DNA from: a virus
DNA length: 64,000 nt
Strand: one strand, 5' to 3'
Virus genome (UHGV): UHGV-0180032
Positions 5,142-47,424 of the stretch are shown here, piece by piece (within the stretch, counting starts at the first letter, position 1; every line of letters begins with the position of its first letter). The notes below the pieces were generated by a model. The model was not told where the DNA came from and ran no database searches. It saw only the letters and a program-made list of their open reading frames with translations. Made by a program: the position numbers and the translations under genes.

Positions 5142-5312
5142 ATGAGAAAACATTTTCAGCGTCACGCGATTAGCTACGCGTTATCGTTAGCTTACGGACA
5201 CCAATCCTTCGTTACCCGGAATACGGGAACGACTCACGACGCGCACAACGAACACTATATTCAAAACGAAGAAGGTGTTCTGTAGAATAACCGTCATTTC
5301 ATTGCTGACACT

Positions 5313-26691: not shown

Positions 26692-26729
26692 TCGCTAAGT
26701 CAACTACTATAACAAAAAATAATAAGTTT

Positions 26730-26762
26730 ACCTACCTCCTTTACGGAGGTAGGTATTTTTTT
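26730..26762. terminator. bidirectional terminator
   Basis: Stem acctacctcc/ggaggtaggt, loop tttac, T-runs on both strands. Confidence 0.65.
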
Positions 26763-27435
26763 ATTCTAATCCCATTTCCAGTGCAAGAGCACGGATCGTG
26801 TCGTAGTCACGCTGTTCAGCGTACTGACGAATTTCACGTTTCTGGGCAGACATCGCGTTGTGTAACTGTTGGTCACGCTTCACAATAGCCCCCATCAACG
26901 CTTTACATTGCTCCAGCGTAAACGGTTCTATACGTGTATTCGACGTGTCCAGCCAATAATCCGGTGCAGTTTCAGACTGGATATATTGGCCCAGCATCTG
27001 ACGAGAGGTTTCGTCAGCTTGGAAATGACGACCGTCAACTTCGATGTAGCCGTGACGCTGGTCTTCGTAACGGTGTTCAATTTCCAACATGATTTTCTGG
27101 ATATCTAAATAGATATAGCGAGACGTCGAACGCATATTCGAACGAATCTCATCCAGGTCAATCTCCAGAACGTCAGTAATGAATTCTTTTGCTTTATTCA
27201 GTGTAAACTTCGACTCGATAGGAGACATTTCGTAAGTTTGCATCTGGGCTAAAGCTTCTTCATCACTCATCCCTTCAATCAACTTGTAGTGCAGTAAAGC
27301 ACAGAACCCCGTACGTCCACGGACTTCGTTACCTACACGTTCCATGTAGTTACCGTGGCGGTCAATTGGGAGATCGTGAGCGAAATAACGCGCGCGAATC
27401 TCTTCCTTCGTTAAGCTTTTGTTAGAAGCAGACAT
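26761..27435 (-). CDS. hypothetical protein (224 aa), last gene of the radical-SAM operon
   Basis: Track ORF; co-oriented and overlapping with upstream gene. Confidence 0.55.
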   Translation of the reverse strand: MSASNKSLTKEEIRARYFAHDLPIDRHGNYMERVGNEVRGRTGFCALLHYKLIEGMSDEEALAQMQTYEMSPIESKFTLNKAKEFITDVLEIDLDEIRSNMRSTSRYIYLDIQKIMLEIEHRYEDQRHGYIEVDGRHFQADETSRQMLGQYIQSETAPDYWLDTSNTRIEPFTLEQCKALMGAIVKRDQQLHNAMSAQKREIRQYAEQRDYDTIRALALEMGLE

Positions 27436-27977
27436 TCTTCTTCTCCAACCATACCTAATTCTTGCAGCAAGCCAAAATCAATCAACTGGAAGGTTTCAGA
27501 GAGATCGTTTGACCACACCACGTTTGCAATGTCGCGTTCTTCATCCGTTAACTGCGGTAACACACTTTCGTTGAACGTCTGATGCTCTACGTAATACGCA
27601 TCGTAGATAGACGTGGAACGCAAACAACGGATGGGTAGACGCGGGAAAGACACCGCTAACGCAGCAATAGACGCGCTGCTCGGATTCTCCGCTGAATAAC
27701 GAAGCAGTTCGATTTTGTGGCGTGGGTAGTCCAGTACACGTTGTTCGAAACCCGGATTACGTTTTTCGATTTCCACAACGGACTCATGGCCTGTTTCTGT
27801 GCAGTAAACAGGAATCATCACGTTTAACCCGTACTTAATCAGCAGGGGTTTAATCTCATCTGTAAAGTCTTCACCAGGGATAATGGCGTGGACGTTATAG
27901 AGTTTGTGTTTACGCAGAAAACGCTCAACCAGGTGGAGTTTACGCTTCGTAAAATTGTGGATCAGAATTGATTTCAT
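27411..27977 (-). CDS. hypothetical protein
   Basis: Track ORF 27411..28001 trimmed to second ATG (27977) with gagg SD; overlaps end of radical-SAM gene. Confidence 0.5.
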   Translation of the reverse strand: MKSILIHNFTKRKLHLVERFLRKHKLYNVHAIIPGEDFTDEIKPLLIKYGLNVMIPVYCTETGHESVVEIEKRNPGFEQRVLDYPRHKIELLRYSAENPSSASIAALAVSFPRLPIRCLRSTSIYDAYYVEHQTFNESVLPQLTDEERDIANVVWSNDLSETFQLIDFGLLQELGMVGEEECLLLTKA

Positions 27978-29274
27978 TATTTGCCTCAGTAGGTTGTGCA
28001 TTTAACGCACGTTTAGCTTGCTCACGCTCACGCGTACATTTCGGACAGTAACAAACAGACGAATCGTGCAGTGACGACGCGTGGACGGTACCTGTACGTT
28101 GACGCCAGTATTCTGCTGCCATCAGTTTGGCGGTCGTCCAACCACATTGACGACGTTCAGCGTGGTACGCCTTACGGTCTTCCAGTGTCCCTTCACCGTT
28201 TTCGTAGGATGCGGCCGCACAGCTCCCACAACCGTGTTTCATCGGACAGCCTAAGCACGTTTCAGGATAGTTGGTGTATTGCGTCTGAATCTCTTCCAGC
28301 AGTTTCCCACCGTCTAAGCTAACAAACTCACGACCGACTAACTCAAACACCGCAGAACGTGACGTTACCGTTGACATAAACCGGTTACAACCGTACACCT
28401 TACGGTCAAAACCTAAGCAGGTCATAAACGTCAACGTCCCACAGAACGGACGTAAACGTTCAGGGTTATAACGGTGCGTGTCGTCGTACAGCAGTTTATC
28501 GCGCCAATCCGGGTCCCAAATCTGACGGAAATCCAGACCTTCAGGAATGATGTGGGACAACACGTTACGTGGGTTGGTGTGCAGTCCTTTCTCAATCCAA
28601 TAATCCATCACCTCGATCATCTGCAACGCAATATCCGTCGCCATGCTTCGTGGAAGAATATCTTCGTACGTCACGTTACCTGAAATCGTACCGCCACCGG
28701 CAATATCGATTAACGACTTCATACTCGCCGCGTAATGCGGTAAGGTTTCGGACGTAAAGGTTGCCTTAATACCCAGTTCGGCGATACCCACTTCTTTTAA
28801 GTAGTTATAGCCACGAACAGCGGCTTCGTAAGAACCCTGACGCGACGTGGTAAAGATACGATAGCGGTCATGGACTTCTGGCAACCCGTCGATAGAAACA
28901 CCGATGGAGAGTTTGTCTTTCCAACGCTCAACAATCTCACGGTTTAACGGACGGTCTAACAACGTCCCGTTCGTGGAGATACTGAACATATACGGGCGGT
29001 TATGCTCCTTACACAGCTGTTCTGCGGTTTCAAACGCCGCTAACAGCAGTTTCGGTTGCATAAAAGGTTCGCCGCCGATGATATCAATAATGACGTCGAT
29101 GTTCGGAATATCTTTGTCACGCTCAAAACAGGCGTGTAAGAAATCCACGATATCCGCCGCTTTGTTATTACGCGGATACTTACGTTCGTAACAATACTCA
29201 CAGTCTAAGTTACAAGACAGGTTCGTTACCACCTGGTAAGTACGTTGTGAACGTGGTGCTTCATTATTGCTCAT
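27940..29274 (-). CDS. radical SAM enzyme with C-terminal SPASM-type Cys cluster (peptide/protein maturase-like)
   Basis: CNLDCEYC (CxxxCxxC), IIGGEPFM SAM-binding motif, C-terminal CLGCPMKHGCGSCAA plus further Cys; 444 aa. Confidence 0.85.
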   Translation of the reverse strand: MSNNEAPRSQRTYQVVTNLSCNLDCEYCYERKYPRNNKAADIVDFLHACFERDKDIPNIDVIIDIIGGEPFMQPKLLLAAFETAEQLCKEHNRPYMFSISTNGTLLDRPLNREIVERWKDKLSIGVSIDGLPEVHDRYRIFTTSRQGSYEAAVRGYNYLKEVGIAELGIKATFTSETLPHYAASMKSLIDIAGGGTISGNVTYEDILPRSMATDIALQMIEVMDYWIEKGLHTNPRNVLSHIIPEGLDFRQIWDPDWRDKLLYDDTHRYNPERLRPFCGTLTFMTCLGFDRKVYGCNRFMSTVTSRSAVFELVGREFVSLDGGKLLEEIQTQYTNYPETCLGCPMKHGCGSCAAASYENGEGTLEDRKAYHAERRQCGWTTAKLMAAEYWRQRTGTVHASSLHDSSVCYCPKCTREREQAKRALNAQPTEANNEINSDPQFYEA

Positions 29275-30181
29275 CTTTGCTTATCCTTTTACGCTCTGCA
29301 TAAATCACGCGTTTAATGTACTCGTAAGCACCTACCCCGATAGAGCAAGCAAGCTGATTGCACCCACCCTTTAAGATAGCCGGTGCATTCTGAAGCTGAT
29401 GTTCTGTTCCATCTGCGTTCAAATACAACTCTTCGCTACAGACATTACACTCGTTTTCGAAAATCTTGCTGACAGACACACCGCACGATTCTCCAGTTTG
29501 GACGTTCAGCCGTTCCATATTCTCCTGAATCTTTAAATAACCATAAACGAAGTTCATGATGTGATCGGGAGACAACGGTTTTGGCATTTGGGCATCAAAC
29601 ATCAGAGAGAACGCACGGGGACGATAGTGGTACATTGCACGATGCAGTTCCACAATATCTTCATACCAGCGCTTATCGGCTAACTGGTCACGCGTAATCA
29701 CAGCCCAGGTTTGGAAGTTATCGAGTTCGTATAACGCTTCCAGTGCTTCGTGGCTATCCTCTTCAATAAAGCGTATAAAAGGACGCTCAGAACGCTTGTA
29801 GCCATCAATTGATACAAACACATGCTCAAAGTCTTTTAGCAGCGTAAGATGCGATTTACGCAGCTTTAATCCGTTGGTATACAAGTGATGCTCAAGATGC
29901 GGATGAGACACTTTCAATTCGTTAACGAAATCCTCAATCTTACGTTGGACGAGTAGCGGTTCTCCACCGGTCCAATGTATTTCCTTAATAGCTGGATTCT
30001 CTTGTAGTAATTCCAGGATACGTTCGCGTTGAAAAGCACGAGACGAATCTTCACGATTCATGTAGTAGGCTCCACCGCAGAAACTACAGTCTAGGTTACA
30101 CTTAGACGTCGTAACTACGGACAATATAGTGGGTTTATCGTACAACTTCGTCGAGATCCTGGATTCCACATTGTCTATCAT
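29264..30181 (-). CDS. radical SAM enzyme (second, shorter) with C-terminal auxiliary Cys motifs
   Basis: CNLDCSFC, HWTGGEPLL, C-terminal CNVCSEE...GGCNQLACS; 305 aa; stop overlaps start of 27940..29274. Confidence 0.8.
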   Translation of the reverse strand: MIDNVESRISTKLYDKPTILSVVTTSKCNLDCSFCGGAYYMNREDSSRAFQRERILELLQENPAIKEIHWTGGEPLLVQRKIEDFVNELKVSHPHLEHHLYTNGLKLRKSHLTLLKDFEHVFVSIDGYKRSERPFIRFIEEDSHEALEALYELDNFQTWAVITRDQLADKRWYEDIVELHRAMYHYRPRAFSLMFDAQMPKPLSPDHIMNFVYGYLKIQENMERLNVQTGESCGVSVSKIFENECNVCSEELYLNADGTEHQLQNAPAILKGGCNQLACSIGVGAYEYIKRVIYAERKRISKDEQ

Positions 30182-30201
30182 TGCAGGTTGCTCCAGTATT
30201 T

Positions 30202-31089
30202 TTAAATATAATCGATGGCGAATAAAGGATCTTCGTCGAAGTTAACACCGGGTTTTAAAATCAGTGGTGAATTATACGCTTCCAGTAAACGGTTAAGTTC
30301 GTTGTAGCGGCTATTCATCCGTTTGAGGTCTTCTAAGGTTACAACACGGTCCAGCATCGGCTTAACCGCTTCGGCTTCTTCGTCAGTCAGCTTAACTTTC
30401 GACAGCAAGAAACTAACGAGTTTGGAAATGTCCGCTTCGGTAGCTGGGCTCTGACCAAAACGTACCTGAACCATATGCTGCATCCACGGTTTACGAATGC
30501 GTTTCGTAATTACGTGTTCGTCAGTAATGGCTTTCCAAACCGAACGTTCACGAATCCATTCAAACTTATAGCTGTAAGCCATTAAGTCAGCCAAATGCGT
30601 AATTCCGAGTTCTTGATAACCTTCAATATCGATATACGGTTCCGTATCGAAATACTCTTTGGTATCCTTCTCGACCAACGCGTAGTAGTTAGGGAATGCA
30701 CCCAGGTAGTCTGGACTCCACCAACGACGCGCCATCGGTTTAGCATCGAGTTCTTCAAACGGTGTGAACATAAGTTCTAAGTCAACTGTATTATTTAACA
30801 CACCGTCGCTAAAGAAATATTTACCATCGATAAGTTTACCGCGTTGTGAGTTGTCACCGGTAAAGACAACGATGCTTTCGCCAACCATGTCACGAATTTT
30901 GAACGTATTCTCAACCGTAAAGTTGTCACGATTAGCGATATGACGACCACGCACTTTCGGCCATTCCCCAGGAATCATGGCAATTAAGCGTACATCATCA
31001 GCAAGATGGTGACGTACCGAATCAGGGGAAGAGATGTGAAGTGGATGATTGAACGTTGTCGTATATGCAAGATGTAGATCGTTCTTCAT
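30202..31089 (-). CDS. hypothetical protein (295 aa) between precursor-like ORFs and radical SAM genes
   Basis: Track ORF; no recognisable motif. Confidence 0.6.
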   Translation of the reverse strand: MKNDLHLAYTTTFNHPLHISSPDSVRHHLADDVRLIAMIPGEWPKVRGRHIANRDNFTVENTFKIRDMVGESIVVFTGDNSQRGKLIDGKYFFSDGVLNNTVDLELMFTPFEELDAKPMARRWWSPDYLGAFPNYYALVEKDTKEYFDTEPYIDIEGYQELGITHLADLMAYSYKFEWIRERSVWKAITDEHVITKRIRKPWMQHMVQVRFGQSPATEADISKLVSFLLSKVKLTDEEAEAVKPMLDRVVTLEDLKRMNSRYNELNRLLEAYNSPLILKPGVNFDEDPLFAIDYI

Positions 31090-31238
31090 TGATTACTCCA
31101 ATTAATTCACGGTCAAACGGACGTTCAGGGTATAGAACCCACCCCGCCATTGTCTGCCGGTAACTTGAAACTCAGCAGTAAACCCATTCGATTTACTCGA
31201 TTGTTGTGTAATAGCCGTGCTACCACCGGAGGGTTTAT

Positions 31239-31445
31239 TTACCTTCCCCCCGCTCCTTTACTACAGCTACCACTGCACGCCCAGCTACAACTACCGTTAC
31301 AGTTATAGTGAGTTAACGGTAATCCCGCCAGGTTATTCGTTGAGGACACCGTACCTTGGTTAGCGATGTAGTTATTCGCGTCTGTGGTTTTAATGTAACC
31401 TTCAACCTGACCGACTCTGTCTCGAATATTTTTGAGGGAAATCAC
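31239..31445 (-). CDS. Cys-rich precursor-like peptide 1 (68 aa)
   Basis: GTG start after aggaggtga SD; N-terminal leader-like region MISLKNIRDRV...; C-terminal NCNGSCSWACSGSCSKGAGGR. Confidence 0.6.
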   Translation of the reverse strand: MISLKNIRDRVGQVEGYIKTTDANNYIANQGTVSSTNNLAGLPLTHYNCNGSCSWACSGSCSKGAGGR

Positions 31446-31455
31446 TTCTCACCTC

Positions 31456-31851
31456 CTATCGTCCTGTACACGACGAGCAGCCACCCGTACAGCTACTGGA
31501 GCACGATGCTGTACAGCCGCCCGTACAAGTGCCCGAACACGCATTAGCGCACCCACCCGAACAACTCCCCGAACATCCTGAACAACTACTGGAACACCCT
31601 GACGTGCAGTTTGCAGAGCATGAAGAACCACAACCACCAGACGCGTTCCCTGTACAACCACCAGAGCAACTCGAGCAGGTAAAGGAACACGTGCCCGCAC
31701 AATCATAATGCGCACGATTCCGACCACCGAACAGGTCCGCGTTATTCGTGGCCTTATTGCGGATGTAGTTCTGTACACCTGTGGTGTTTTTCAGCGCGAT
31801 ACTATCGACGTTATTAAGACGTCTTACTAATTCAGCTAATCCGACTGCCAT
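31456..31851 (-). CDS. Cys-rich precursor-like protein 2 (131 aa)
   Basis: SD ggggga; leader-like MAVGLAELVRRLNNVD...; long core with Cys every 3-4 residues ending CTGR; alternative-frame ORFs over the same DNA judged spurious. Confidence 0.65.
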   Translation of the reverse strand: MAVGLAELVRRLNNVDSIALKNTTGVQNYIRNKATNNADLFGGRNRAHYDCAGTCSFTCSSCSGGCTGNASGGCGSSCSANCTSGCSSSCSGCSGSCSGGCANACSGTCTGGCTASCSSSCTGGCSSCTGR

Positions 31852-31860
31852 TTCTTCCCC

Positions 31861-32253
31861 CTATCGTCCAGAGCATCCGCCGGAGCAAGCACCCGAACAG
31901 TTATGCGAACAACGCCCAGTACAACTTCCGGTACAGGTACTTGTACAACTGCTAGAACAGGCCCCCGAGCAACCGGAGCATCCTGAACAGTTGCCCCCAC
32001 AGGACGAAGAACAGCTACCCACGCACGACGCTGAACAGTTTCCTGAACAGCTCGAGCAACCGTGAGTACATCCGTTAGAACATGTCCACGAACACGCTCC
32101 CCCGCAGTCTAAACGCGAAGGCGTCCAACCGGAAAACGAATCTGCTGCGTTATGCGCTTTCGATGCGACCTGCGCATTGACACGAGGGCCGGTAGCGACT
32201 GTATTTTCTACCGTTGTTAACCGATCGCGCATTTGTTTAACACTAATCGCCAT
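31861..32253 (-). CDS. Cys-rich precursor-like protein 3 (130 aa)
   Basis: SD aaggaag; leader-like MAISVKQMRDRLTTVEN...; Cys-periodic core ending CSGR. Confidence 0.65.
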   Translation of the reverse strand: MAISVKQMRDRLTTVENTVATGPRVNAQVASKAHNAADSFSGWTPSRLDCGGACSWTCSNGCTHGCSSCSGNCSASCVGSCSSSCGGNCSGCSGCSGACSSSCTSTCTGSCTGRCSHNCSGACSGGCSGR

Positions 32254-32318
32254 TACGCTTCCTTAAAATTAAAATAGAGGAGGAACCAGCCATAAGCATA
32301 GTTCCTCCTGTAATTAAA

Positions 32319-33524
32319 TTATTTCGTACCCGCTTCCGCCTGTACGTCATCACGAGACGTCAGGTTAGCGTTAACGTGTACAGCGGCCTGAACCACACCA
32401 CCGTATCTCTTGTGGAGATAACCGCTGTGCGGGTTATCTGCCGCGATGTGGTTTTGTAGGTTCTGGTTCGCTTGACTGATTGCGTTCGTGTTATTGTTAA
32501 CCTGCTGTTTAAGCGCATCCAGGTTCTGTTGTACCTGATCGATTTTCTGATCGGTTTCTTGACCCTGTTGCTCTAACGCGGCAACACGCTGAATAACCTG
32601 ATTCAGTTTTGTGTTTAAATCGTTGATGCTCTTTTGCAGTTGTAACACTAACGAGTTCAGGTTCGCTAACGCTAAAGCCATTTTCTGGTAGTTTTGAGCA
32701 ACCACGTTAAGTTGGTCGTTCCACGCTTCCAGAGAGTTGACAACAGCGTCAATACGTTTACCTAAAGCTTCGTCTGCTTTCTTCAGTGCATTGATTTCCG
32801 TAATCGTTGCATCGATAGCAGACTGGACGTCACGAATAAGCGCACGGATTTCCGTTTCTGTTAACCCGTTAACCTGATGGATATCAAGATGGTGAACGTT
32901 ACCGGTTGCGTTGATGTGCGCATTTAAAGCGTCTAAGAAGTCATTTTTCAGGCTTTCTAAAATCGCTTTAATGTTCTCTAACTGTACCGCGTCACCGGAA
33001 CTGATCGCGTCTTTAATCCCCGCCAATACGGTGATGATATATTCAAAACCGTAGATGTCACCCACGTCTTTATACGTCGGTGCAGACGGGAATGTATCCG
33101 GTACGTTACGCAAGTCTTTAAACGCAATCGTACGGTTATCGAGGTTTAACTCAGCAATCGCCTGTTCGATAGCCACAATGTTCGCAGACTGTGGACCACC
33201 AACGACCTGCGCAGATACCGTAATATCTGTTGGAATCGCTGTGTTAGTGACCACCACCGCCATAACAATCTCGCGGTTTTTAGTCAGCTTTTCATAAGTC
33301 GGGTGTGCAAAAATCAACTCATAATCGGTACCACGTTCGTAGGTTGCATCCGGTCGGTTAGCAACGCGTAAACGGAACGTGTCCGCAAAGAACGGACCAT
33401 CAGGAAAAGCAAAAGCACGGTTTACTTTACCTGTACCTAACGTAATCTGACGCTCCACAGCGTTAGACGTTAGCGTGCCCGTTAAATCTAAAGGATATTG
33501 ATAAACAATGGAGGCCATGGCCAC
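32319..33524 (-). CDS. fibre-like coiled-coil protein (401 aa) sharing the N-terminal module of the giant proteins
   Basis: N-terminal FPDGPFFADTFRL...GTDYEL; long Gln/Asn/Leu-rich coiled-coil segment. Confidence 0.65.
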   Translation of the reverse strand: MAMASIVYQYPLDLTGTLTSNAVERQITLGTGKVNRAFAFPDGPFFADTFRLRVANRPDATYERGTDYELIFAHPTYEKLTKNREIVMAVVVTNTAIPTDITVSAQVVGGPQSANIVAIEQAIAELNLDNRTIAFKDLRNVPDTFPSAPTYKDVGDIYGFEYIITVLAGIKDAISSGDAVQLENIKAILESLKNDFLDALNAHINATGNVHHLDIHQVNGLTETEIRALIRDVQSAIDATITEINALKKADEALGKRIDAVVNSLEAWNDQLNVVAQNYQKMALALANLNSLVLQLQKSINDLNTKLNQVIQRVAALEQQGQETDQKIDQVQQNLDALKQQVNNNTNAISQANQNLQNHIAADNPHSGYLHKRYGGVVQAAVHVNANLTSRDDVQAEAGTK

Positions 33525-33558
33525 TCTCCTTTATTCGAGACGTCCTTGTCCCGAGTCA

Positions 33559-36500
33559 TTAAGATGTAAACATAAGATTGAACTGGAGTTTGTCGATATC
33601 GCGAGTTTCTGCCGGATTCACGGCATCGTACGCGGTCGCTACGTAAACGGTTAGCGTACCGTTCGCGTAAGACGATTTCACCGGTGGGTTAGTTCCGGAC
33701 TGACCATCTCGCACAATGAGTGTAGGTTCACTTGGGAGATTGTCAAACTGACCCTTAACCGCTTTATATACCAAACCCGATTGCGCAGCCAGTTCAGTGT
33801 CCGTAAAGACAAAGAACGGTGTGTCGATATCAGCCTGTTTGATTGTAGTACCAGACTCGACGTCAATCAACTGTACCGCCCCAAACTTCGTACGATAACT
33901 TCCATACTCGTTCTTCGGAATAACGAACGTGACATGAACACGAACCTCCTCGGCGGGTTTAAACCCACTGTGCTCTTTTTCCAGGTACTGGTTGGCGGTT
34001 AACGTTACCGTTTGTTCAGTCATCGTACCACCGGCCTGGTTTATTGCATACCGAGCTTCAACAATACCGGTTGGTGCAGCAAGTCGCAGTTTCAGAGCAC
34101 GATTCGCCGTTCCTGGATTACCTGGCACCTGAACGCGCAAACTCAATGTTAGGTAAGCATTCGTTCCGGTAGTCGGTTTCGTATACGCACCAATCCATTT
34201 CATGTTCGCAGACGCTGCCTGCGTGTTCTCAGAAGCAGTGGCTGTCGCAATGTTAGCAGCTACCGCTTTCTGCCAGAATTGGTCAGCGCAGTTCTCATAC
34301 GCTACCCTGGCCACGCTCTTATAACCCGAATACGTTTCCTGAATTGGTAACTTAGGACGCGTCGTAATGCCAGACAGTGAACCCCATTTCTGACCGTCAA
34401 CATACCCTTCACCTTTTGACGCAGACGCCGTAGGTGCTTTAACAGGCTTGTTAACCAGCGTTAATAGAGGACCCGTCTTTCTGTCAAACGCTGCTGCAAC
34501 ATCATGTTGGTCGATAATCGCTGCGTGGTCTTCCAGTTCTTTCACACGGCCCAAGCGTTTTACTTTGTCGATACGGATATCCGTAATACGGTTGGAATCA
34601 GTGGTTACTGTCCCGACGAACAGTCTCGTTGAAGTATCAGCTAACTGCTCCAAACCGATACGGTATTGCGCAGTAGAACCCGACACCTCAGCGTGCACGT
34701 AGAACGTCTGGTTAGCGTGGTTAGACGGGAATTCGCTGCTTAAGTCCACAGACCACGTTGGGAGCGTGTAACTGCTGCTACCGAAGTCTAATTTGACTTC
34801 TTCCGTCAAATATAGAATCCAGCCTTCTGCTGTCTCCACACCGGCAATAATAACAGCCTGACCTTCGGTTGAGAACGTCGTGTCGTTAACAAACTCTGCG
34901 GCTGTATACGCGTTACCTGAACAGAAAACACGGTCAGCTTTAGAGTAAATCAACGCCATCTTGTCCCAATCACCGGCACCCATAAAGCAGCCTGATTCTG
35001 GTCTATGTGCAGGGGCCATCTGTCGTAACTGTGATTTACCTGCAACGCGTGTCCAACCTGAACCAGGGTCGAAGGTATATTTCGCAGCGTAGCCCAGGGC
35101 GTTTAAGTCCCCGATATTTCGGGTAGTTAACGTATAAGGTAGCCAGATACCGAAGTTAGTTCCATCCACAGATGCAAAAATAGGCTGTCCCACGCGCCGC
35201 GTTTTACCACCCCCTTCTTCCCTCAAAGACTGATAACTTAAACCATAATCGAGGTCTAAGAACCAGTCCACCAACTTAAAGGTAGCGGAGTTGAAACGTA
35301 AGTAGCCGTTCTCTTTAGATGGGCTCACCATGAAGTAATAGATGTCCAGAATTCGACGTCCGTTACTTGAGGTTTTCATGCACGAAACTTGCAACAAGTC
35401 AAATTCGCACACGGTGTTGATACCCAACATCCAAAGAGCAAACAATGCATTACCGGTTTGATGGGCAGCACTAATACGTTCGTTCGCGTATCCGTTCGCT
35501 TCACCGGAAGGCGCACCGTCGACGATCATCCGAATCATTTTCTGCCGATCGGCTTCTTCTAACGTTAAACGTTCGGAGGACAACGCGAAATTACCGTAGA
35601 TGTTGCGATACGGGAACGTTTCTGCTTTGGTCAAATACCAACCGTTTAACTGTCCATGACGCTCCTCAGGGATCATACACGCAGCCATACAGCTAAGCTG
35701 CTCGTAAAGCGTCGCATCAACTTCACGACGGTTGTTGTTCGGACCGTACCCACTATACCCAGAAACATCGTAAGGTTTGTTCGGATCAACTTCCACTTCG
35801 ATCGTGTAACGGTTACGAGGGTTCGATAACCAGACCTTATTCGAACCACCAATCCCTACTGGATAAGACAAACCGATGGTGTAAATGGAGCCACGGCCTT
35901 TATCCCAGGTAAACGTTCCTTCGCCCGAGGTGTTGTTTGGGTTATCGTAACGCAGATAATCGAAAAGCTCTCTGCCTTGTGTACTCTTAATAGAAACATT
36001 AGGCATTTGGTCCGCATCGGCAATTTGCCAACAGGAAAGCATCATTCCTGTACCGTTGGGTTTAGCATACGTCGCGAAACAACGGTTGTTTGCCTGGCCA
36101 CCACCCCACTTACGATTGGTTCCTACAGTTGAACCATCTGCGAACGAGAGTGTAGTAGTAGCATCAGCCTTGATGGGGAAGCGTTCGCGGCCTTCTAACG
36201 TAACCTTGCCCGTCAACGTATCGATTGTAAAACTTGTTGCCCATTGAAGGAAATTAATCGTCGTACCGTCGGCCGCTGCAAACCACACGGTAGGCATATG
36301 GTTCACACGAATCACGCTATCGCGCACAGCACACGCGTGGTTACATTCTGGACCGTGAACAAAGTTACGCCCGATCGTCCATTTAGCACGACCCTCCGGT
36401 GTGAGATATGTAAAGAATTGACCCGTTTGCGACTCTTCGGTTTTCTGACCAATACGCAAGCAGAGGTTATCTCCGAATTGTCCCATCTCGCCGGTTAGAG

Positions 36501-38745
36501 TTACACGTTCAAATTCTAACGTAGTGTTAGTAGACAAATCGGCCTTACGTAGACGCCAAGCTGCTACGGCGTAAGCGGAGTTATTTACCGTTGAACGGAG
36601 AAGATAAACGTAGTCCTCAACCAACACGACATCGTCAGCTTCCGGCCACGGGTTCCAGGTTTGTTCCACAGTACCACTGGGGTTGCCGTTACGGTACACG
36701 GGCATCGTAACGCGACATACCACCGTGTGCTTAGTGTGGTCCATCGAGCCATTAAACAGCACCAAATAACGGTTATTGTCAGAACCCAGGCAAATAATCG
36801 CTTCCTGGCCACCGATCAAAATAGCTTTTAGGGTCACTCCAGGATATTTACTCATCCCGGCAGGGTGATATTTCACTGAGGTCTGCTGCGGATTTACAAA
36901 CGCGTTTGACGTGTCAATGTCAGCATAGCCGTAATAAATAGCTTCCGTACCCGGCACGCCGTTAGAACCGTTACGGAGCGAATAAACCTTACCCTGCTGA
37001 TACCCAACAACCCCTTTCTGGTAAGACTGGTTTTTGGTGTAGCCTGCGTAGTTGCCTAACGCTGGGATAGGTAAGAAGTTTTTATTACCGAATTTCGCAC
37101 CGCCTACTGTCCATGCCGGTAAGATGGTATTCAGTTTATCAGAGACCTTCTTAATCTCTTTTGCGAACAACCACCCTTGACGTGACGTGACAGCTTTATC
37201 GTTAGTGGTGTCAATTGCATCCCACAGCTGTAAGATACCATCAACCGTTGCACTACCAATCGGGACGTTATCCAAGTCAGCAGTGGTGTGGGTGTGCGTC
37301 TTCAAACTCTTGTTTTTCAACACGTTCGTTAACGCTTTTGTCACAGGCTTAGCACTCGGTATGGTGTTATCCATCTTATCGATACCGAAATCGGTTTTCG
37401 TTAAGGTTAACACCATGTTGTCGCCCGTCTTAACAAACCCTTTACCGTTAACGGTATAGTCATCGTCAACGTACAAGTCCAACCGGTCTTTTAATTCAGT
37501 TACGGCTTTCTGGGAGATAGCAGTACCTAACGCCGCAGACGTAGAGATATTCGTAATCGAGAACAACCCATAAACTGATTCGGACGCTGTGGGAATATTC
37601 GCGTTTAACGTGACCGGGTTAGTCTGTTTTGCGGTACCGTACGGTTTTACTGTGTCTGACGCTTTGAAATACGCGTTTGCTTCAAGCAACGTTACTGACG
37701 TCAGATACATGTTCACCATTTCTGGTGTAACCAGGTACACAGAGTTATAAACCGGTGCTAATACGTCCTGCTCTGACCCTGAGTGAACCCAAAGTGTATT
37801 CAGACCCGCACTGAATTCAACCGCTAAACCCGATTCGTTGTTGTCCTGGTCTGCTTTAATCACTAACGGTTGTGGCGAGGTAATTAACCACTTATCACCA
37901 CGAATACTGATGATGTGACCACCTGACGTTTTAAACGTTAATTCATTACCGTTCGTGGTGCCCCATCGACCGTAAACGGTGCCGAGGGCTTCACCCATTA
38001 ACTTGTCAACGTCGGATTGCTCAATACCCGCTGACCCCATCAGCGTAGCCAATTCGTCAATCGTTAACCCAAACGCTTTTGTGGCGTCAACCGCACGTCC
38101 TAATACGGGGAGAGCAGCAACGTCATCAGTGGTATAGTGATGCGCGTTAGGATTACGGTGATGCTGGTATAATTCTTCGTCGAAAACCTTTTTCCCGTTC
38201 TCGTAAATCAGGTTAGTGACTTCACTGAACGCAGCATCTAATTCCGTAGAACGTTTGATGATTTTCTTGCGAATGTCTTCTAAAGCCTTAACGACCTCGT
38301 CCCTCAGAATCGCTTCTTCTAAGTTAGCAGGCGGGTCGATAGGCTGAATAACCGGCGCATACGCCATTAGTTCAGACCAGTCCACGTTACGTGGGTCTTT
38401 CAGGTCAGTACGAACTAAGAACTTCCCGATTTCAGATTGCGGTACACGGTATTGACGTGCTACCCCTAAAATCTCGTATTCGATTTCTGTTGCGGTAAGC
38501 AACATAAACCCGCCGTAAATCTGATCCTGCTCAGCTTCGGCGAGTTCTTTAAAGTAATAGCCTAAATAGTAGTCCAACCCCTCAATCAGAGTACGACGTC
38601 CGTTAGGCGCGGTATCGTCGGCTACTGTGAGTTTTAATCCGATACGATAAAAAGGTCCTTCGGGTGGAATGACCACGTTAAATCGGTTAGGGTACGTCGC
38701 TGTGCTTAGCGTACCGTTAAACTGCGCCGCGTCTTCTCTCGGCAT
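33559..38745 (-). CDS. giant tail-fibre/tailspike-like protein (1728 aa)
   Basis: N-terminal PPEGPFYRIGLKL...GLDYYL module shared with neighbours; long ORF. Confidence 0.7.
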   Translation of the reverse strand: MPREDAAQFNGTLSTATYPNRFNVVIPPEGPFYRIGLKLTVADDTAPNGRRTLIEGLDYYLGYYFKELAEAEQDQIYGGFMLLTATEIEYEILGVARQYRVPQSEIGKFLVRTDLKDPRNVDWSELMAYAPVIQPIDPPANLEEAILRDEVVKALEDIRKKIIKRSTELDAAFSEVTNLIYENGKKVFDEELYQHHRNPNAHHYTTDDVAALPVLGRAVDATKAFGLTIDELATLMGSAGIEQSDVDKLMGEALGTVYGRWGTTNGNELTFKTSGGHIISIRGDKWLITSPQPLVIKADQDNNESGLAVEFSAGLNTLWVHSGSEQDVLAPVYNSVYLVTPEMVNMYLTSVTLLEANAYFKASDTVKPYGTAKQTNPVTLNANIPTASESVYGLFSITNISTSAALGTAISQKAVTELKDRLDLYVDDDYTVNGKGFVKTGDNMVLTLTKTDFGIDKMDNTIPSAKPVTKALTNVLKNKSLKTHTHTTADLDNVPIGSATVDGILQLWDAIDTTNDKAVTSRQGWLFAKEIKKVSDKLNTILPAWTVGGAKFGNKNFLPIPALGNYAGYTKNQSYQKGVVGYQQGKVYSLRNGSNGVPGTEAIYYGYADIDTSNAFVNPQQTSVKYHPAGMSKYPGVTLKAILIGGQEAIICLGSDNNRYLVLFNGSMDHTKHTVVCRVTMPVYRNGNPSGTVEQTWNPWPEADDVVLVEDYVYLLRSTVNNSAYAVAAWRLRKADLSTNTTLEFERVTLTGEMGQFGDNLCLRIGQKTEESQTGQFFTYLTPEGRAKWTIGRNFVHGPECNHACAVRDSVIRVNHMPTVWFAAADGTTINFLQWATSFTIDTLTGKVTLEGRERFPIKADATTTLSFADGSTVGTNRKWGGGQANNRCFATYAKPNGTGMMLSCWQIADADQMPNVSIKSTQGRELFDYLRYDNPNNTSGEGTFTWDKGRGSIYTIGLSYPVGIGGSNKVWLSNPRNRYTIEVEVDPNKPYDVSGYSGYGPNNNRREVDATLYEQLSCMAACMIPEERHGQLNGWYLTKAETFPYRNIYGNFALSSERLTLEEADRQKMIRMIVDGAPSGEANGYANERISAAHQTGNALFALWMLGINTVCEFDLLQVSCMKTSSNGRRILDIYYFMVSPSKENGYLRFNSATFKLVDWFLDLDYGLSYQSLREEGGGKTRRVGQPIFASVDGTNFGIWLPYTLTTRNIGDLNALGYAAKYTFDPGSGWTRVAGKSQLRQMAPAHRPESGCFMGAGDWDKMALIYSKADRVFCSGNAYTAAEFVNDTTFSTEGQAVIIAGVETAEGWILYLTEEVKLDFGSSSYTLPTWSVDLSSEFPSNHANQTFYVHAEVSGSTAQYRIGLEQLADTSTRLFVGTVTTDSNRITDIRIDKVKRLGRVKELEDHAAIIDQHDVAAAFDRKTGPLLTLVNKPVKAPTASASKGEGYVDGQKWGSLSGITTRPKLPIQETYSGYKSVARVAYENCADQFWQKAVAANIATATASENTQAASANMKWIGAYTKPTTGTNAYLTLSLRVQVPGNPGTANRALKLRLAAPTGIVEARYAINQAGGTMTEQTVTLTANQYLEKEHSGFKPAEEVRVHVTFVIPKNEYGSYRTKFGAVQLIDVESGTTIKQADIDTPFFVFTDTELAAQSGLVYKAVKGQFDNLPSEPTLIVRDGQSGTNPPVKSSYANGTLTVYVATAYDAVNPAETRDIDKLQFNLMFTS

Positions 38746-38839
38746 CGTAAAGACTCCTACTTTTAAATAAAATGGATACCCCTCCCCATTACAGGGAGGG
38801 GTTACCTACGGACACACAACTGCCCGCAGGCAGCCTGTC

Positions 38840-41800
38840 CTAAGTACGATCCCCTAACTGCTTCCCGTTAAGTTCTCGTTTCAGTACAGAAAGTATCCAT
38901 TTCCACGCTTTACTCGTGATGTGGTACGGATTGCGTTTCTCCATTAAGAACTGCTTTTCACCGCTACGCAGTTCGAAGCTCTGCGCATTAAGCTGATCCT
39001 GACGAGTGCTTTGCTCATCGGTCACATCTAACGAACAGGTAAAGTTAAGCTCGTAACCTTCAGGATTATTACCCGGCGGGTCTAAGACAATATAGATGTC
39101 CTGACCTACACGTAAGTCGGTGGCCGTGATACTAATCGCTTTACCTACGTCAGCGCTGGTCGACAGAGCAAACTCCGCACTGTCCGTAGACGCTAAGAAT
39201 GGGTCTTTCCCTGCGTCACCGATAATCACCTTACCTGGCCAGTTACTTTTTATCGTTCCCGTCACTTTTGCAATTCGGTACTGTTGTTTATCGGCACCTT
39301 GTGCAAAACGGAGAATGAGTTTGTGACGATAACGACTTGCAGCAGCCTTAGTCGTACTCCACTCGTTGTTCCAGGAAGTGTGCAGTTCGTTGTTCTTCGC
39401 CATCAACGCACCGCGAGACAGCTTACGATCAAAGAACTGCGCAGGTAACTGCCCATCATGAGAAACCGCAACGCTTCCCTGACCAGTTGGCAAGGCAATG
39501 CTCTCCGTAACGCGATATTTCTGACTAATCTCATAAGTCGCAGGGTCAATCACAGACTGACTATAATCAGCGTCTTTGTTATCAGCCAAATACCCAACGG
39601 ATGAATCCAGATACGACTCAAACAGCGAACGTAAGTAATGATACTTATCAATGTTGATGTTGTTCGTAACCGGATCAATCAGCGCATGGCTAATCGTTAC
39701 TCGGCATTTCGCACTCAGTTCTTTAAACGACAACCCTATTCCGTCACCGGTGAAATAATCCACTAAGTCGAACGGGAATTGAATTTCCAACTGACGTTGT
39801 TTAACTGTCGTCGTCCCAAACTGCGAGAACGACAACGCTAAACGCAGCACACGCGTACTTACGTTATAACGGTAACGAATCATCCCACGAGGTGCATGGT
39901 TTGCAGAGATTTTATCTCGAGCGGCACCCCAGCCAATCAAATCGAGAATCGCGGGGTTGGTTTCTTCACCGTTGAACAACACGTCCTTAAACGTTGCATT
40001 CACCGCTGTTTCCCCAGACTCTTCCATTACCAACGGAATGTCAGTAACGTCTGAAACTGAACGGGAACCAATCCCCAACTTGCACGCTTTGGCCGTCAGA
40101 TCGATACGTACGTAACGGCGTTTAACACTCGCCCCTTGCGTTGACGTACACAGCACCAAATCCGGTGCAGCAGTAAGTGCTTGTGTTCCACCGACGTCGT
40201 CAACGTCAAACACAAACGAACCTTCGAATGTCGGTGCGTTGTTTTCTTTCGGGTTAAACGGTGTAAACCAGCAATACGGTGTAGCGCCTTCAGGTATCAC
40301 AACGTACTGAAGACTGGACTTCACGTTTTGGTTGTGTGCGTAAGTATAAAGACCACGACTGACAAGATGGAAAACATCACCTGTACCGGCTGCTAACGCT
40401 TTCCTAAAGATACACGCTCTCGGTTCGGCAATGGCACGGTTTAATAACGGCAACCGTGGGTTATCCGTTAACGCCCAGTCCACAGAACTGAGTCCGTGTG
40501 CTTTACGCGTGGCGATGTGTCCACTAACCTCGGCACTTTTCCCGAAATCAAACGTGGTTTCGAACCCTACCGTTTTATTCGCGTAATTCTCACCAGCAAC
40601 AATATCAACGTAACCGATATAACCGCGTTCAGGATCAACCGCGACGCTCTGAATCGGTTCAGCACGCGAATACAGAGAGCCTGTGAGCATGTTAACGTAC
40701 AGATAGTGACGAATCCCTACGTGCGTGGTAACAAACTCCTGGAGAAGCTCTACGCGCGTTTCAGGGCCACTGAAGTAAACGGGGTAATCCCCATCGTAAA
40801 CTTCAAACTGTACCGCTGCGGACTTAGCCGTATCGCTACATTCGGCTTTAACCGCTATTGTGTAGTTTTCAACGTCTGATGACGTTTCGTACACTGCAAC
40901 GAGCGGAGACTCGCCTGACGCTGCCAGGTTACCGTTAATGTAAACCGTAACCGGACCGCCGCCCGCAGCATAAACCCAGAGCTTTGATTGGTACGCCCTT
41001 ACACGCGTTTTTGCCAGTACCGTAACCACTGACTGGTCACCCATCTGAGTAGCGGTTTTACCTACCGCAACAGACTGGAATCCCATCAACGGCGGTTCTT
41101 CAATACCTGTCCAGTTGATTCCCGTACCGTTACTCACCTTACCCGTAGGCCAAGTCAGTTCAAGCTGGTTGTTAGGTGAGAACCAGTTAAACATCGGGGT
41201 GGTTTGCAGGTCAATCGCACCAGTAACGGTACTGTCGCCTTTCGTCCCGTCCAGCAAATAGAAATATTTCAAATCCTGAACAGAGATTGACGTACCCTGG
41301 CTATTAAAACGCCAGTCCGCACCTTTCACAGCAGCAAAATCGGTTACCGTACCTTCTTTCGCGTTTGCAATTGCCGCAGCGACCACATCTAAACGTGCTG
41401 AAAGCTCTTTTAGGATGTTCGGTACCACCGCTCGGTTTTCAACTAAGCCGTTCTGGTTAGTTGCGTAACGACCAATACCGTAAATCGTCTGCGAGGCTTT
41501 ATAAATGCCTAACTCTGACCAGTCGTGATGGTGACCGACATCTGCTAAACCACTAACCGAAGCATTCAGTGCGGTAGACAACGGTTTGTCAAGGTCTGCG
41601 GTGTTATCCGCTTGCCCTAATCCCAGGTCAGCTTTCGTGATTGTCCTGGAACCGTCGTTCATCGGCTTACCGTTAATCATGGTCGTTTTAGTCACGTACC
41701 CTGATAAGTCGGTTGAATACGGCGTTAATGACGCAGGAGTTGCTGCAACCCCAACCGTTTCTGTGCCTTTACCGGTTTTAAGCTTAACAACACCTTTTTC

Positions 41801-43024
41801 AGCGGTGGTCGCTTTCGTCGGGTCGATAGTCCCCACGATGGGATCGGCACGAGAACCTTTACCGGTAAAACTAATCCCGTTACGGCCTTCGATATACACT
41901 TTGGAGTCATCAGGATCGCTACCGCCACTCCCGCCAGCATCAGGGTCTTGCTGATACTCCATCAGCGCTGTGGTGGTCAACAACGGGTTACCGTTCAGGG
42001 TGAGTTTGTTCATCCCTAAAGCGTCACCGGTTGACTCGATGCGTAAGGTGTTTTTACCCGCACGCCAGTTAATGTAACGCCCCGCACCTGTGCCTTCCAG
42101 ATGCCCTACCGCTAATACCACAGAACCGTTGGATTTTAACGTAAAGCCATCATTCGCAAAAATGATTTCGGATTCACCGTTTTTCGAACGGAATTGTGCG
42201 CGGTTTCCAGACACCGTACAGTTAAACACGCCCCGTACTTCCGAAGAAATCCAGTGGGAGATATACGTGTCAATAACTGACTGTGGTAAACGAAACGCTT
42301 TCAGTTCATCCGTTAACGCTTTCAATTTTAACCCGTACGCCATAAAGGTGTCAGGTGTTTTCAGGTTAACGGGATGGGCATTAATTTGTGCGCTCGTGGT
42401 TTCGTGCGGGTTCGTCGCGGCGATATGTGCTGGGTAGTTAAACGCTTCAATTTCTTTCCCCAACGCAGTCACTAGCACTTTAACTTCGGCTATTTTATCC
42501 TTAATTAGCTGGTTAGCGTCATCGGTTTTCAACTCAATATCGTGAATCGCTGACGCTAAGTATTTTTTGTTCAGCAAATCCGCCCAGGACGTTGCCGCAG
42601 GCGTAGCTGGGTATAACGACGGTCTACCGTCTAACAACAGCCAGTCTGCACTGACTGGGTTATTCAGATATTTCACCAACTCGTCGAGCATGTCAACGAA
42701 CGGGTCGTAGAACGTACCGCCGAGCATTTGTCCTTCAAAGGTTACGATCCCTTTGATGGATGGGTTGATAAGGTGTACCCCACAATACACGTTGGCTGCT
42801 ACCGAGTCATCCAGTTCCGTCAGCTGATATTGCAGTTCGTAGTCCACCCCACGGCTCAGTGGGGTGGTTGAACCTGGTTGTCTGACGACTAAGTCTTCAA
42901 AGAACGGGCGATGGTCTAAAATCACCACCCGGTCATTGTTGTTTTCTGACCCGATGATACGCTCCTCTAAGAAGTGATTCTCGGTTTTCGTCCCCCGAGG
43001 ATCGTAAGGATACGCTTTCATCAA
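38840..43024 (-). CDS. giant tail-fibre/tailspike-like protein (1394 aa)
   Basis: N-terminal HRPFFEDLVV...GVDYEL module; long ORF. Confidence 0.7.
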   Translation of the reverse strand: MMKAYPYDPRGTKTENHFLEERIIGSENNNDRVVILDHRPFFEDLVVRQPGSTTPLSRGVDYELQYQLTELDDSVAANVYCGVHLINPSIKGIVTFEGQMLGGTFYDPFVDMLDELVKYLNNPVSADWLLLDGRPSLYPATPAATSWADLLNKKYLASAIHDIELKTDDANQLIKDKIAEVKVLVTALGKEIEAFNYPAHIAATNPHETTSAQINAHPVNLKTPDTFMAYGLKLKALTDELKAFRLPQSVIDTYISHWISSEVRGVFNCTVSGNRAQFRSKNGESEIIFANDGFTLKSNGSVVLAVGHLEGTGAGRYINWRAGKNTLRIESTGDALGMNKLTLNGNPLLTTTALMEYQQDPDAGGSGGSDPDDSKVYIEGRNGISFTGKGSRADPIVGTIDPTKATTAEKGVVKLKTGKGTETVGVAATPASLTPYSTDLSGYVTKTTMINGKPMNDGSRTITKADLGLGQADNTADLDKPLSTALNASVSGLADVGHHHDWSELGIYKASQTIYGIGRYATNQNGLVENRAVVPNILKELSARLDVVAAAIANAKEGTVTDFAAVKGADWRFNSQGTSISVQDLKYFYLLDGTKGDSTVTGAIDLQTTPMFNWFSPNNQLELTWPTGKVSNGTGINWTGIEEPPLMGFQSVAVGKTATQMGDQSVVTVLAKTRVRAYQSKLWVYAAGGGPVTVYINGNLAASGESPLVAVYETSSDVENYTIAVKAECSDTAKSAAVQFEVYDGDYPVYFSGPETRVELLQEFVTTHVGIRHYLYVNMLTGSLYSRAEPIQSVAVDPERGYIGYVDIVAGENYANKTVGFETTFDFGKSAEVSGHIATRKAHGLSSVDWALTDNPRLPLLNRAIAEPRACIFRKALAAGTGDVFHLVSRGLYTYAHNQNVKSSLQYVVIPEGATPYCWFTPFNPKENNAPTFEGSFVFDVDDVGGTQALTAAPDLVLCTSTQGASVKRRYVRIDLTAKACKLGIGSRSVSDVTDIPLVMEESGETAVNATFKDVLFNGEETNPAILDLIGWGAARDKISANHAPRGMIRYRYNVSTRVLRLALSFSQFGTTTVKQRQLEIQFPFDLVDYFTGDGIGLSFKELSAKCRVTISHALIDPVTNNINIDKYHYLRSLFESYLDSSVGYLADNKDADYSQSVIDPATYEISQKYRVTESIALPTGQGSVAVSHDGQLPAQFFDRKLSRGALMAKNNELHTSWNNEWSTTKAAASRYRHKLILRFAQGADKQQYRIAKVTGTIKSNWPGKVIIGDAGKDPFLASTDSAEFALSTSADVGKAISITATDLRVGQDIYIVLDPPGNNPEGYELNFTCSLDVTDEQSTRQDQLNAQSFELRSGEKQFLMEKRNPYHITSKAWKWILSVLKRELNGKQLGDRT

Positions 43025-43034
43025 AAAATTCTCC

Positions 43035-47357: not shown

Positions 47358-47424
47358 TATCTACTCCTATAGTCCGTGGGCGTCGAGTTCATACTATGAC
47401 TTGAATCTATTGAGGAAAAGAGCT

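Follow-up and report, generated by a model that had tools for sequence, protein, structure and literature searches.

The 64 000-nucleotide stretch of viral DNA analysed here (UHGV virus genome UHGV-0180032; hereafter the window) carries three adjacent minus-strand genes, A, B and C, the products of which hold a cysteine at almost every fourth residue of their C-terminal part. They are almost certainly real genes of the CXXX-repeat type, coupled to radical S-adenosylmethionine (rSAM) enzymes, two of which are encoded in the same block. The reading that we regard as probable, with appreciable room for doubt, is that the products belong with the tail fibres and are not precursors of a released peptide; in the cytoplasm the two rSAM enzymes would cross-link their Cys repeats, probably as thioethers. 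We infer the modification, its thioether nature and the presence of the product in the virion. The enzymology would be of the kind that acts on ribosomally synthesized and post-translationally modified peptides (RiPPs), most likely directed at a structural tail protein rather than at a diffusible peptide.

The Cys-repeat genes and their N-terminal regions

By sequence similarity, the source of the window is assigned to the SPN3US (Seoulvirus) group of jumbo phages. Positions 27000–34000 were ~74% identical to Salmonella phage SPN3US, Erwinia phage pEa_SNUABM_29 (Ea29) and their relatives by megablast, and the IMG/VR contig IMGVR_UViG_3300045988_095954 is a 100% identical copy. A first-pass annotation of the window had described three tandem minus-strand open reading frames (ORFs) of 130, 131 and 68 residues at 31239–32253, and the ORF call confirmed them. 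The core that it quoted, CSFTCSSCSGGCTGNASGGCGSSCSANC, is part of B, and the terminal Gly-Arg that it pointed out is present in A, B and C alike. The recurrence of Cys every 3–4 residues is clear in A (21 Cys; 17 spacings of 4 and three of 3) and in B (20 Cys; 15 spacings of 4, three of 3 and one of 8); the core of C is minimal, with four Cys and three spacings of 4. The spacing is thus 4 in 35 of the 42 Cys–Cys intervals. The cores consist of about 75% Ser, Cys and Gly and are built from the unit C-[S/T]-G-x; Ser or Thr directly follows the Cys in 80% of the window units and Gly is the second residue in 51%. As the Cys, Ser and Gly codons are mixed, the array is not a DNA tandem repeat and its periodicity is selected at the protein level. 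The pattern goes far beyond chance: the Cys fraction of A and B is the highest among the 261 open segments in the window. A and B are paralogs that share 45% identity. Tryptic peptides from the N-terminus of A, which do not involve the proposed modification, include VQIVEANMATGPR and IDAQVASK.

SPN3US (NC_027402.1, complement of 143191–144220, with A at 143828–144220, B at 143413–143817 and C at 143191–143397; L001 9409–10438) and Ea29 both have orthologues of the three genes at this place, and alignment of the three phages shows the Cys positions to be conserved. The ratio of nonsynonymous to synonymous differences per site (pN/pS) in the Cys frames was 0.1–0.27 against SPN3US and the Erwinia phage, with synonymous sites saturated; for gene A it was 0.12–0.24 against the same two phages, and for gene C the corresponding substitution-rate ratio (dN/dS) was 0.05–0.19. 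Four of the other five frames gave pN/pS values of about 1 or more, the exception being the antisense frame that shares third codon positions (0.23–0.43). Such strong purifying selection in the Cys frames marks A, B and C as real genes. The alternative-frame ORFs, such as the 109-aa frame that corresponds to SPN3US gp166 and the plus-strand 'PEQ' ORFs, were ruled out as genes (pN/pS >1). The order A, B, C was conserved in 13 of 13 SPN3US-like loci examined, and gene C itself was found in all 13 Seoulvirus-like loci (cluster c7).

In the GenBank/RefSeq record of SPN3US, gp166 (143409–143744) is the wrong frame over gene B, and A and C have no coding sequence. The CXXX genes of Caproicibacterium prophages are likewise uncalled (8979–9692 in both L088 and L089), and it appears that gene callers systematically overlook genes of this kind or place them in the wrong frame. 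A homologue search with protein A returned only eight matches because such ORFs are rarely called.

The leader-like N-terminal region that had been attributed to the three proteins is real at the profile level as a shared, Cys-free region: all three match phrog_6085 from residue 1 (A, E = 1.6e-36; B, E = 1.6e-42; C, E = 1.9e-25, residues 1–66). Hidden Markov models (HMMs) built from the N-termini of each paralog group alone matched the other groups at 23–65 bits in most directions, with shuffled controls at ≤1.8 bits; the weakest cross-matches were those of B to C (9.5–27 bits) and one of C to A (2.8 bits). When the N-termini of A, B and C were compared in pairs by BLASTP, no match was significant. 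At the end of the region stands a motif of the tail-fibre type, N-A-D-x-L/F-x-G-x5-Y/L-x-C. The residues ahead of the first Cys (NAADSFSGWTPSRLDC in A, NNADLFGGRNRAHYDC in B and TNNLAGLPLTHYNC in C) show the motif that also precedes the repeat in fibre proteins of relatives, and it resembles the NADxLDGxHAxxF of neighbouring fibre proteins elsewhere (e.g. L041 c1). The 'leader' is therefore more readily understood as the final part of a fibre shaft, which in the Seoulvirus lineage would be made as three separate small proteins. The near-identical Shine–Dalgarno regions that had been taken as a sign of tandem duplication stand in part: a real Shine–Dalgarno sequence is present, but the likeness lies mostly in the GGA CGA TAG (Gly-Arg-stop) of the preceding paralog that it follows. 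The sequence upstream of A differs (AAGGAAG, after a hairpin).

Family assignment, spread and tail-module context

Profile comparisons place A, B and C as apparent divergent members of the CXXX-repeat rSAM target family, which is database-defined and in silico (TIGR04114/PF27846). Against TIGR04114 (NCBIfam 'Cys-rich repeat-containing protein', tSAM_targ_Cxxx; cutoff 20 bits) A scored 19.5, B 17.6 and C 11.4 bits, and B also matched TIGR04117 ('Cys-Xaa-Xaa-Xaa repeat radical SAM target protein') weakly. A search of A, B and C against a Pfam copy that does not include PF27846 (tSAM_targ_Cxxx_rpt) gave no match; PF27846 was met only as a precomputed label.

The rSAM genes to which the first-pass annotation had referred as adjacent were identified with both Pfam and NCBIfam. 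The 444-aa enzyme (PF04055, E = 5e-14) has as its best NCBIfam match TIGR04115, 'radical SAM peptide maturase, CXXX-repeat target family' (E = 2e-36, 126.2 bits), followed by PapB (NF047865; 111 bits, cutoff 340). Cys21, Cys25 and Cys28 are invariant and the SPASM signature CX2CX5CX2C is conserved together with its flanking Cys residues (alignment A1). The protein is 24–29% identical to true TIGR04115 members such as that of L026. Among solved structures, the nearest to it is that of the SCIFF thioether synthase CteB (PDB entry 5WGG, E = 1e-12); residue 20 of the query aligns to residue 106 of CteB, so the phage enzyme is without the N-terminal RiPP recognition element (RRE). The 444-aa protein also has a C-terminal extension past the SPASM region that bears a CYCPKC motif. 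The 305-aa rSAM contains the SAM motif, and its C-terminal Cys cluster is partial, shorter than a full SPASM domain. It is a paralog of the SPASM enzyme (same PHROG), has an HxsC-like match of 47 bits and was paired with the SPASM enzyme in 18 loci. This pairing recalls the paired rSAMs HxsB and HxsC, both of which are among the matches. The gp165-like protein, a conserved partner of the two-rSAM subtype, was found in 17 loci using an iterative HMM, always between the Cys-repeat gene and the rSAMs; its AlphaFold2 (AF2) model has a mean confidence (pLDDT) of 86.6.

The suggestion that the three genes encode RiPP precursors holds in so far as they are substrate-like partners of adjacent rSAM/SPASM enzymes of a RiPP-maturase clade; the classical leader-plus-core precursor of a released peptide does not follow. 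Membership of the SCIFF family, which had been suggested from the Cys spacing, failed: no SCIFF peptide model in NCBIfam matched at E ≤ 1, and the maturase model TIGR03974 gave 55.7 bits against a cutoff of 425. PapB-type membership was rejected on the bit score and on the lack of Asp or Glu in the window cores. Peptidase, transporter and RRE/PqqD families were searched for in every gene of the block with Pfam, NCBIfam and PHROGs, and none was found.

Among characterized and catalogued systems, the CXXX-repeat system (TIGR04114, TIGR04117, TIGR04115 and PF27846) shares with the window a Cys at every fourth residue among small residues and an adjacent same-strand rSAM/SPASM gene for which TIGR04115 is the best family. 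The window differs in having three short paralogs with a different N-terminal region, in having two rSAMs and a gp165-like protein where the family has one rSAM and a helper of ~100 residues, in being carried by a lytic jumbo phage and in scoring under the curated cutoffs. The SCIFF core also holds C-x3-C runs, with CteB (5WGG/5WHY) joining a Cys to the Thr placed directly after the next one, and this Cys–Thr geometry matches the preference for Ser or Thr after each window Cys. SCIFF peptides, in contrast, comprise ~45 residues with six Cys against 130–131 residues with 20–21 Cys in A and B, and CteB has the RRE that the phage enzyme is without. PapB and freyrasin (a C-x3-D/E ranthipeptide) show the same repeated four-residue register of the Cys donor, but the position i+4, which holds an Asp or Glu acceptor there, is occupied by the next Cys in the window cores.

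The spread of the pairing was assessed by scanning IMG/VR with alignment A1 (the window rSAM and its relatives), which gave more than 413 relatives; 80 viral loci were retrieved, and in each of them CXXX ORFs were sought in all six frames by a regular-expression scan. A CXXX-repeat ORF lay beside the rSAM gene on the same strand in 76 of the 80 loci, mostly upstream of it within ~2.5 kb and just downstream in L043, L050, L055, L063 and L074. Of the four exceptions, two are on contigs that break off shortly before the rSAM gene. The other two have a minimal 97-aa protein ending CESCAMGC; this putative minimal substrate (L024, 6883–7176, and L025) ends CESCAMGCHGPQ and has three Cys, and a gp165-like gene and two rSAMs come after it on a phage contig of 279 kb. 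Across the loci the repeat proteins have 68 to 574 residues and up to 92 Cys, the latter in a protein of 480 residues. In 82 distinct phage repeat proteins the spacing was 4 in 74% and 3 in 26% of cases, with the consensus C-[ST]-G-[SGT] and with Ser or Thr after the Cys in 53%. True family members occur in L026–L087 (471.7 bits to TIGR04115 for the rSAM of L026; 41.7 bits to TIGR04114 for the repeat protein of L041), and these show the same same-strand layout as the window. At 90% identity, the broader rSAM family forms more than 4,386 clusters. By tblastn, cultured carriers were confined to SPN3US-like jumbo phages, with Salmonella, Erwinia, Cronobacter, Escherichia and Proteus as hosts, and 13 uncultured human-gut phage contigs were matched as well.

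Several variants were met along the way. An extra 303-aa rSAM gene lies between A and B in two close relatives, L010 and L020 (~4540–5500), making a third rSAM in the cassette. The domain order is reversed in L063 (8322–9029, 12505–13179 and 13928–14512) and L084 (6878–7465), with the CXXX repeat N-terminal and a conserved helical domain (…LKAAIDREYTRRG…) C-terminal; these genes lie downstream of the rSAM gene and L063 has three paralogs. Three TIGR04115-type rSAM homologues (P0108, P0151 and P0166) contain intein and homing-endonuclease domains (Hint_2, Intein_splicing and LAGLIDADG_3), which fits a phage-borne gene.

Throughout the loci examined, the cassette was located in the baseplate/tail-fibre block. 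The TIGR04115-type order is Baseplate_J (PF04865), Mu Gp48 or P2 gpI, a tail-collar fibre protein (PF12571), the CXXX protein, one or two small proteins, the rSAM and an endolysin; the small proteins that precede the rSAM had no NCBIfam match. In L026 the order is Baseplate_J, Mu Gp48, tail-collar fibre, CXXX protein, rSAM and lysin. The true family members in L026, L041 and the Caproicibacterium prophages are all in phage tail modules. In the complete Caproicibacterium chromosome CP135996.1 the rSAM occurs twice, each time in a prophage tail module with tape measure, sheath initiator, Baseplate_J, Gp48, CXXX ORF, rSAM and GH25 lysin. RnlA/RnlB and ParE/Phd toxin–antitoxin pairs and Abi_alpha are also found in or beside the tail module that holds the cassette in these prophages (L088, 13837–15667; L089, 5292–5799).

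In the closest non-Seoulvirus relatives of the window cassette, the two-rSAM subtype of L021–L023, the repeat is on the fibre protein itself. L022 has a P2-like V-W-J-I-H module in which a 384-aa 'H' protein (PF12571, E = 1.8e-40; many tail-fibre PHROG matches, down to E = 1e-54) carries fibre repeats and then a C-terminal CXXX run, CNGCSGSCSGSCSSGCTACSGCSGSC. Downstream follow a gp165-like gene in the position of the P2 gpG fibre-assembly gene, two rSAMs and then the sheath and tube genes. In L021 a 568-aa fibre-like protein, with the end …NAVTLGGQPPDFYTCGGSCSWSC…CKGR, matches phrog_6085 positions 35–121 and so takes in the end of the window 'leader'. The 247-aa protein of L023 ends …FASNADMLEGQHGDYYRCSGCTWTC (…NADMLEGQHGDYYRCSGCTWTC), matches phrog_6085 with the pre-core motif included and is followed by a gp165-like gene and two rSAMs. 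In L021, a 213-kb phage contig, an rSAM gene after the Cys-tipped fibre gene is split into ORFs of 71 and 157 residues (5065–5780), suggesting a frameshift or a pseudogene, and two more intact rSAMs (472 and 375 residues) follow it.

Gene block and neighbouring features

The Cys-repeat genes are part of one long minus-strand block, the features of which are listed in Table 1. In the sense of transcription, giant tail proteins of 1440, 1394 and 1728 residues are followed by the gp167-like gene, directly upstream of A, B and C; then come the gp165-like gene, the rSAM 2 gene (gp164-like), the rSAM/SPASM gene (gp163-like), the gp162-like and gp161-like genes and a terminator. The three giant genes are consecutive (33559–47357) and correspond to the SPN3US gp168–gp170 family of baseplate-periphery/fibre paralogs. 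A plus-strand ORF of 492 residues (47209–48687) overlaps the start of the last of them (1440 aa).

Table 1. Features of the minus-strand block that holds the Cys-repeat genes (window positions).
Feature	Positions	Strand	Description
Cys-repeat protein A	31861–32253	-	130 aa, ATG; 49-aa Cys-free N-terminal region and 81-aa core; ends CSGR
Cys-repeat protein B	31456–31851	-	131 aa, ATG; 20 Cys; ends CTGR
Cys-repeat protein C	31239–31445	-	68 aa, GTG; core cut to CNGSCSWACSGSC, 4 Cys
gp165-like accessory protein	30202–31089	-	295 aa; phrog_8030
Radical SAM enzyme 2	29264–30181	-	305 aa; CNLDCSFC and GGEP motifs; PF04055, E = 1.2e-14; phrog_1802
Radical SAM/SPASM enzyme 1	27940–29274	-	444 aa; CX3CX2C at residues 21–28; 8-Cys SPASM region
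gp162-like protein	27411–28001	-	196 aa; phrog_7988
gp161-like DUF4376 protein	26761–27435	-	224 aa; PF14301, E = 1.5e-10; last gene of the minus-strand block
Bidirectional terminator hairpin	26729–26755		Terminator scan; closes the block after the gp161-like gene
gp167-like virion structural protein	32319–33524	-	401 aa, long coiled coil; phrog_2163 'virion structural protein', E = 2.4e-104
gp168-like giant tail protein	33559–38745	-	1728 aa; synteny with SPN3US gp168; phiKZ gp131-like baseplate-periphery/fibre paralog family
Terminator-like hairpin and U-tract	32264–32309	-	Between the gp167-like gene and gene A; dG -20 kcal/mol, z = -2.8

Hairpins are present at the position matching 32264–32309 in SPN3US and Ea29, with different stem sequences and z values of -3.6 and -5.0; the window hairpin may attenuate transcription into the Cys-repeat/rSAM block. 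The gp162-like gene is conserved downstream of the rSAMs in Seoulvirus-like phages (13 loci), and in the window its start overlaps the 3' end of the rSAM 1 gene by 62 nucleotides (27940–28001).

The tail protein gp168 of SPN3US is a relative of phiKZ gp131, the location of which is the baseplate periphery and fibres (PMC5105663). The tables of SPN3US virion mass spectrometry list gp160, gp167, gp168 and gp169 onward and none of gp161–gp166 (PMC5694885 supplement). That gp161–gp165 are missing fits non-structural maturation factors. The non-detection of A, B and C is uninformative, since their mis-annotation kept the sequences out of the search database.

Proposed modification and competing explanations

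The fibre fusions and the placement in tail modules shift the interpretation away from a free peptide, and a chain of up to 480 residues with 92 Cys suits a structural polymer better than a secreted peptide. Thioethers are the likeliest product because the top family matches of the 444-aa enzyme are TIGR04115 and PapB and its best structural match is CteB. After translation in the reducing host cytoplasm, the 444-aa rSAM/SPASM enzyme would modify the Cys residues of the repeat, probably assisted by the 305-aa rSAM and the gp165-like protein. Following reductive cleavage of SAM, a hydrogen would be abstracted from a residue near each Cys and a thioether formed from the Cys sulfur to that carbon, as in CteB and PapB. 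A floppy, low-complexity, Gly/Ser-rich tail could thereby become a covalently laced rod or knob resistant to reduction and to proteases, which would join, or sit on, the gp167/gp168 baseplate fibres. More speculatively, Cys(i) would be bridged to the Ser or Thr at i+5, so that rings overlap throughout the repeat; the proposal rests on the CteB chemistry described above, and the Ser/Thr preference after each Cys is compatible with it. We hold only tentatively, at somewhat less than even confidence, the broader view that phages of many lineages (more than 4,000 rSAM clusters, gut prophages and SPN3US-like jumbo phages) use dedicated rSAM/SPASM enzymes to lace C-[S/T]-G-x repeats at the tip or side of a fibre with a continuous thioether ladder. 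In that case the three paralogs of the window might be three chains of one fibre element.

The quinohemoprotein amine dehydrogenase system is a precedent in which an rSAM/SPASM enzyme (QhpD) installs several Cys thioethers in a protein, the gamma subunit QhpC, that is kept in a larger assembly; the QhpD model TIGR03906 matched the window enzyme at 55 bits and that of L026 at 98 bits. Its substrate is unrelated in sequence and is a subunit of a periplasmic enzyme, with a few cross-links rather than a 20-unit repeat. Reinforced phage structural proteins are known from the isopeptide chain-mail of the HK97 capsid and the His-coordinated iron of the T4 gp37 fibre tip. The likeness is in extra bonds that stiffen an extracellular part of the virion; those bonds are autocatalytic or metal-mediated, whereas the window encodes dedicated radical enzymes beside the substrate.

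Several observations weigh against cross-linked fibre proteins. The virion location of A, B and C is something that we infer. In most non-jumbo loci the CXXX protein is encoded by a separate gene between the fibre and lysis genes, and the fibre-to-lysis region is a classic site of cargo ('moron') genes. The conserved hairpin at 32264–32309 stands between gp167 and A, so that the Cys-repeat/rSAM block may be regulated apart from the virion genes. The 444-aa enzyme scores far under the TIGR04115 cutoff (126.2 against 350 bits), a structural search with the gp165-like fold found no relatives, and our literature search found no experimental description of any CXXX-repeat rSAM system. The AF2 model of protein A (six-sequence alignment) had a pLDDT of 38 and no confident fold, which is unsurprising if folding depends on the cross-links or on trimerization.

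The same fibre/lysis junction, with its frequent cargo genes, favours a classical RiPP, in which the N-terminal 50 residues would be a leader, the core would be cross-linked, and a host or other protease would cut off the leader so that a diffusible peptide (antibacterial, a signal or a metal chelator) is released at lysis. The enzymes do fall in a RiPP-maturase clade, a conserved N-terminal region does precede a variable Cys core, and the block sits behind a terminator-like hairpin beside non-virion genes. We nevertheless regard such a peptide as unlikely: the block was found to hold neither a protease or transporter gene nor one for immunity, the enzyme is without an RRE, the tail-module placement is invariant over unrelated phages and prophages, and cores with as many as 92 Cys are unlike those of known RiPPs. 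In L021–L023 the repeat, and with it the 'leader' end, is joined to a complete tail-fibre protein, which also speaks against it, as does the non-Cys domain at the C-terminus of the L063 and L084 proteins. The proteins might instead be structural and modified by other rSAM chemistry (formylglycine formation of the anSME type, dehydrogenation, epimerization, C-methylation or a different reaction for each rSAM). The window enzyme stays under every curated cutoff, the anSME, QhpD, HxsB and cyclophane-synthase models score alike (~55–75 bits), and two distinct rSAMs are kept together, with the third copy in L010 and L020. We rank this behind the released peptide, as improbable, because the top families (TIGR04115, then PapB) and the top PDB match, CteB, are thioether formers, while the cores have neither the anSME motif C/S-x-P/A-x-R nor aromatic residues for cyclophanes.

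Two further explanations are given much less weight. The repeat proteins could be non-virion assembly factors, fibre chaperones or scaffolds like P2 gpG or Mu U, that need rSAM modification; their genes come right after the fibre gene, where P2- and Mu-like modules have the Tfa chaperone, the neighbouring gp161–gp165 are non-virion proteins and a DUF4376 protein is encoded nearby. We consider this very improbable, as the repeat is covalently part of the fibre in L021–L023 and in L022 the gpG position is held by the gp165-like protein and not by the repeat. The first-pass annotation had itself named Cys-rich virion proteins, cross-linked or metal-binding, as its alternative. The cross-linked version fits better, given the tail block, the fibre fusions and the absence of protease, transporter and RRE; the metal-binding version is a rival. 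It would have the Cys repeats unmodified, in proteins that bind metal or Fe–S clusters or become disulfide-bonded later in the virion, as with the metal-lined fibre tips of T4, and the rSAMs would be unrelated. Regular Cys arrays are good metal ligands, and modification of the repeats by the rSAMs is so far a prediction. This is the least probable of the explanations weighed: the rSAM–CXXX linkage is near-obligate (76 of 80) although the other genes of the loci differ, and the family is defined by rSAM co-occurrence, as the names of TIGR04114 and TIGR04115 state.

Cross-linked, tail-fibre-associated proteins thus remain the preferred reading. Systems of this kind are already catalogued as TIGR04114, TIGR04115, TIGR04117 and PF27846; the cassette of the window is a new and distinct variant with three paralogs, two rSAMs, a gp165-like partner and a lytic jumbo phage as carrier. 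The comparative evidence points to phage tail-fibre maturation as the role of the whole CXXX family, and a literature search found no such description. Proteomic surveys could not have seen the substrates, the genes being mis-called in the SPN3US RefSeq record and in Caproicibacterium. With amber-mutant genetics and virion proteomics available for SPN3US, the hypothesis is directly testable. If it is true, it would be the first case of a RiPP-type cross-link placed in a virion protein by an enzyme, and thioether-laced fibres would be of interest in the engineering of stable receptor-binding proteins for therapeutic phages. It would join radical-SAM peptide cross-linking and phage tail-fibre assembly, two fields that have so far been apart. 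The 'CXXX-repeat RiPP' family of the databases would really be a phage tail-fibre maturation system, and the very large orphan family TIGR04114/TIGR04115/PF27846, so far only in silico, would gain a biological role.

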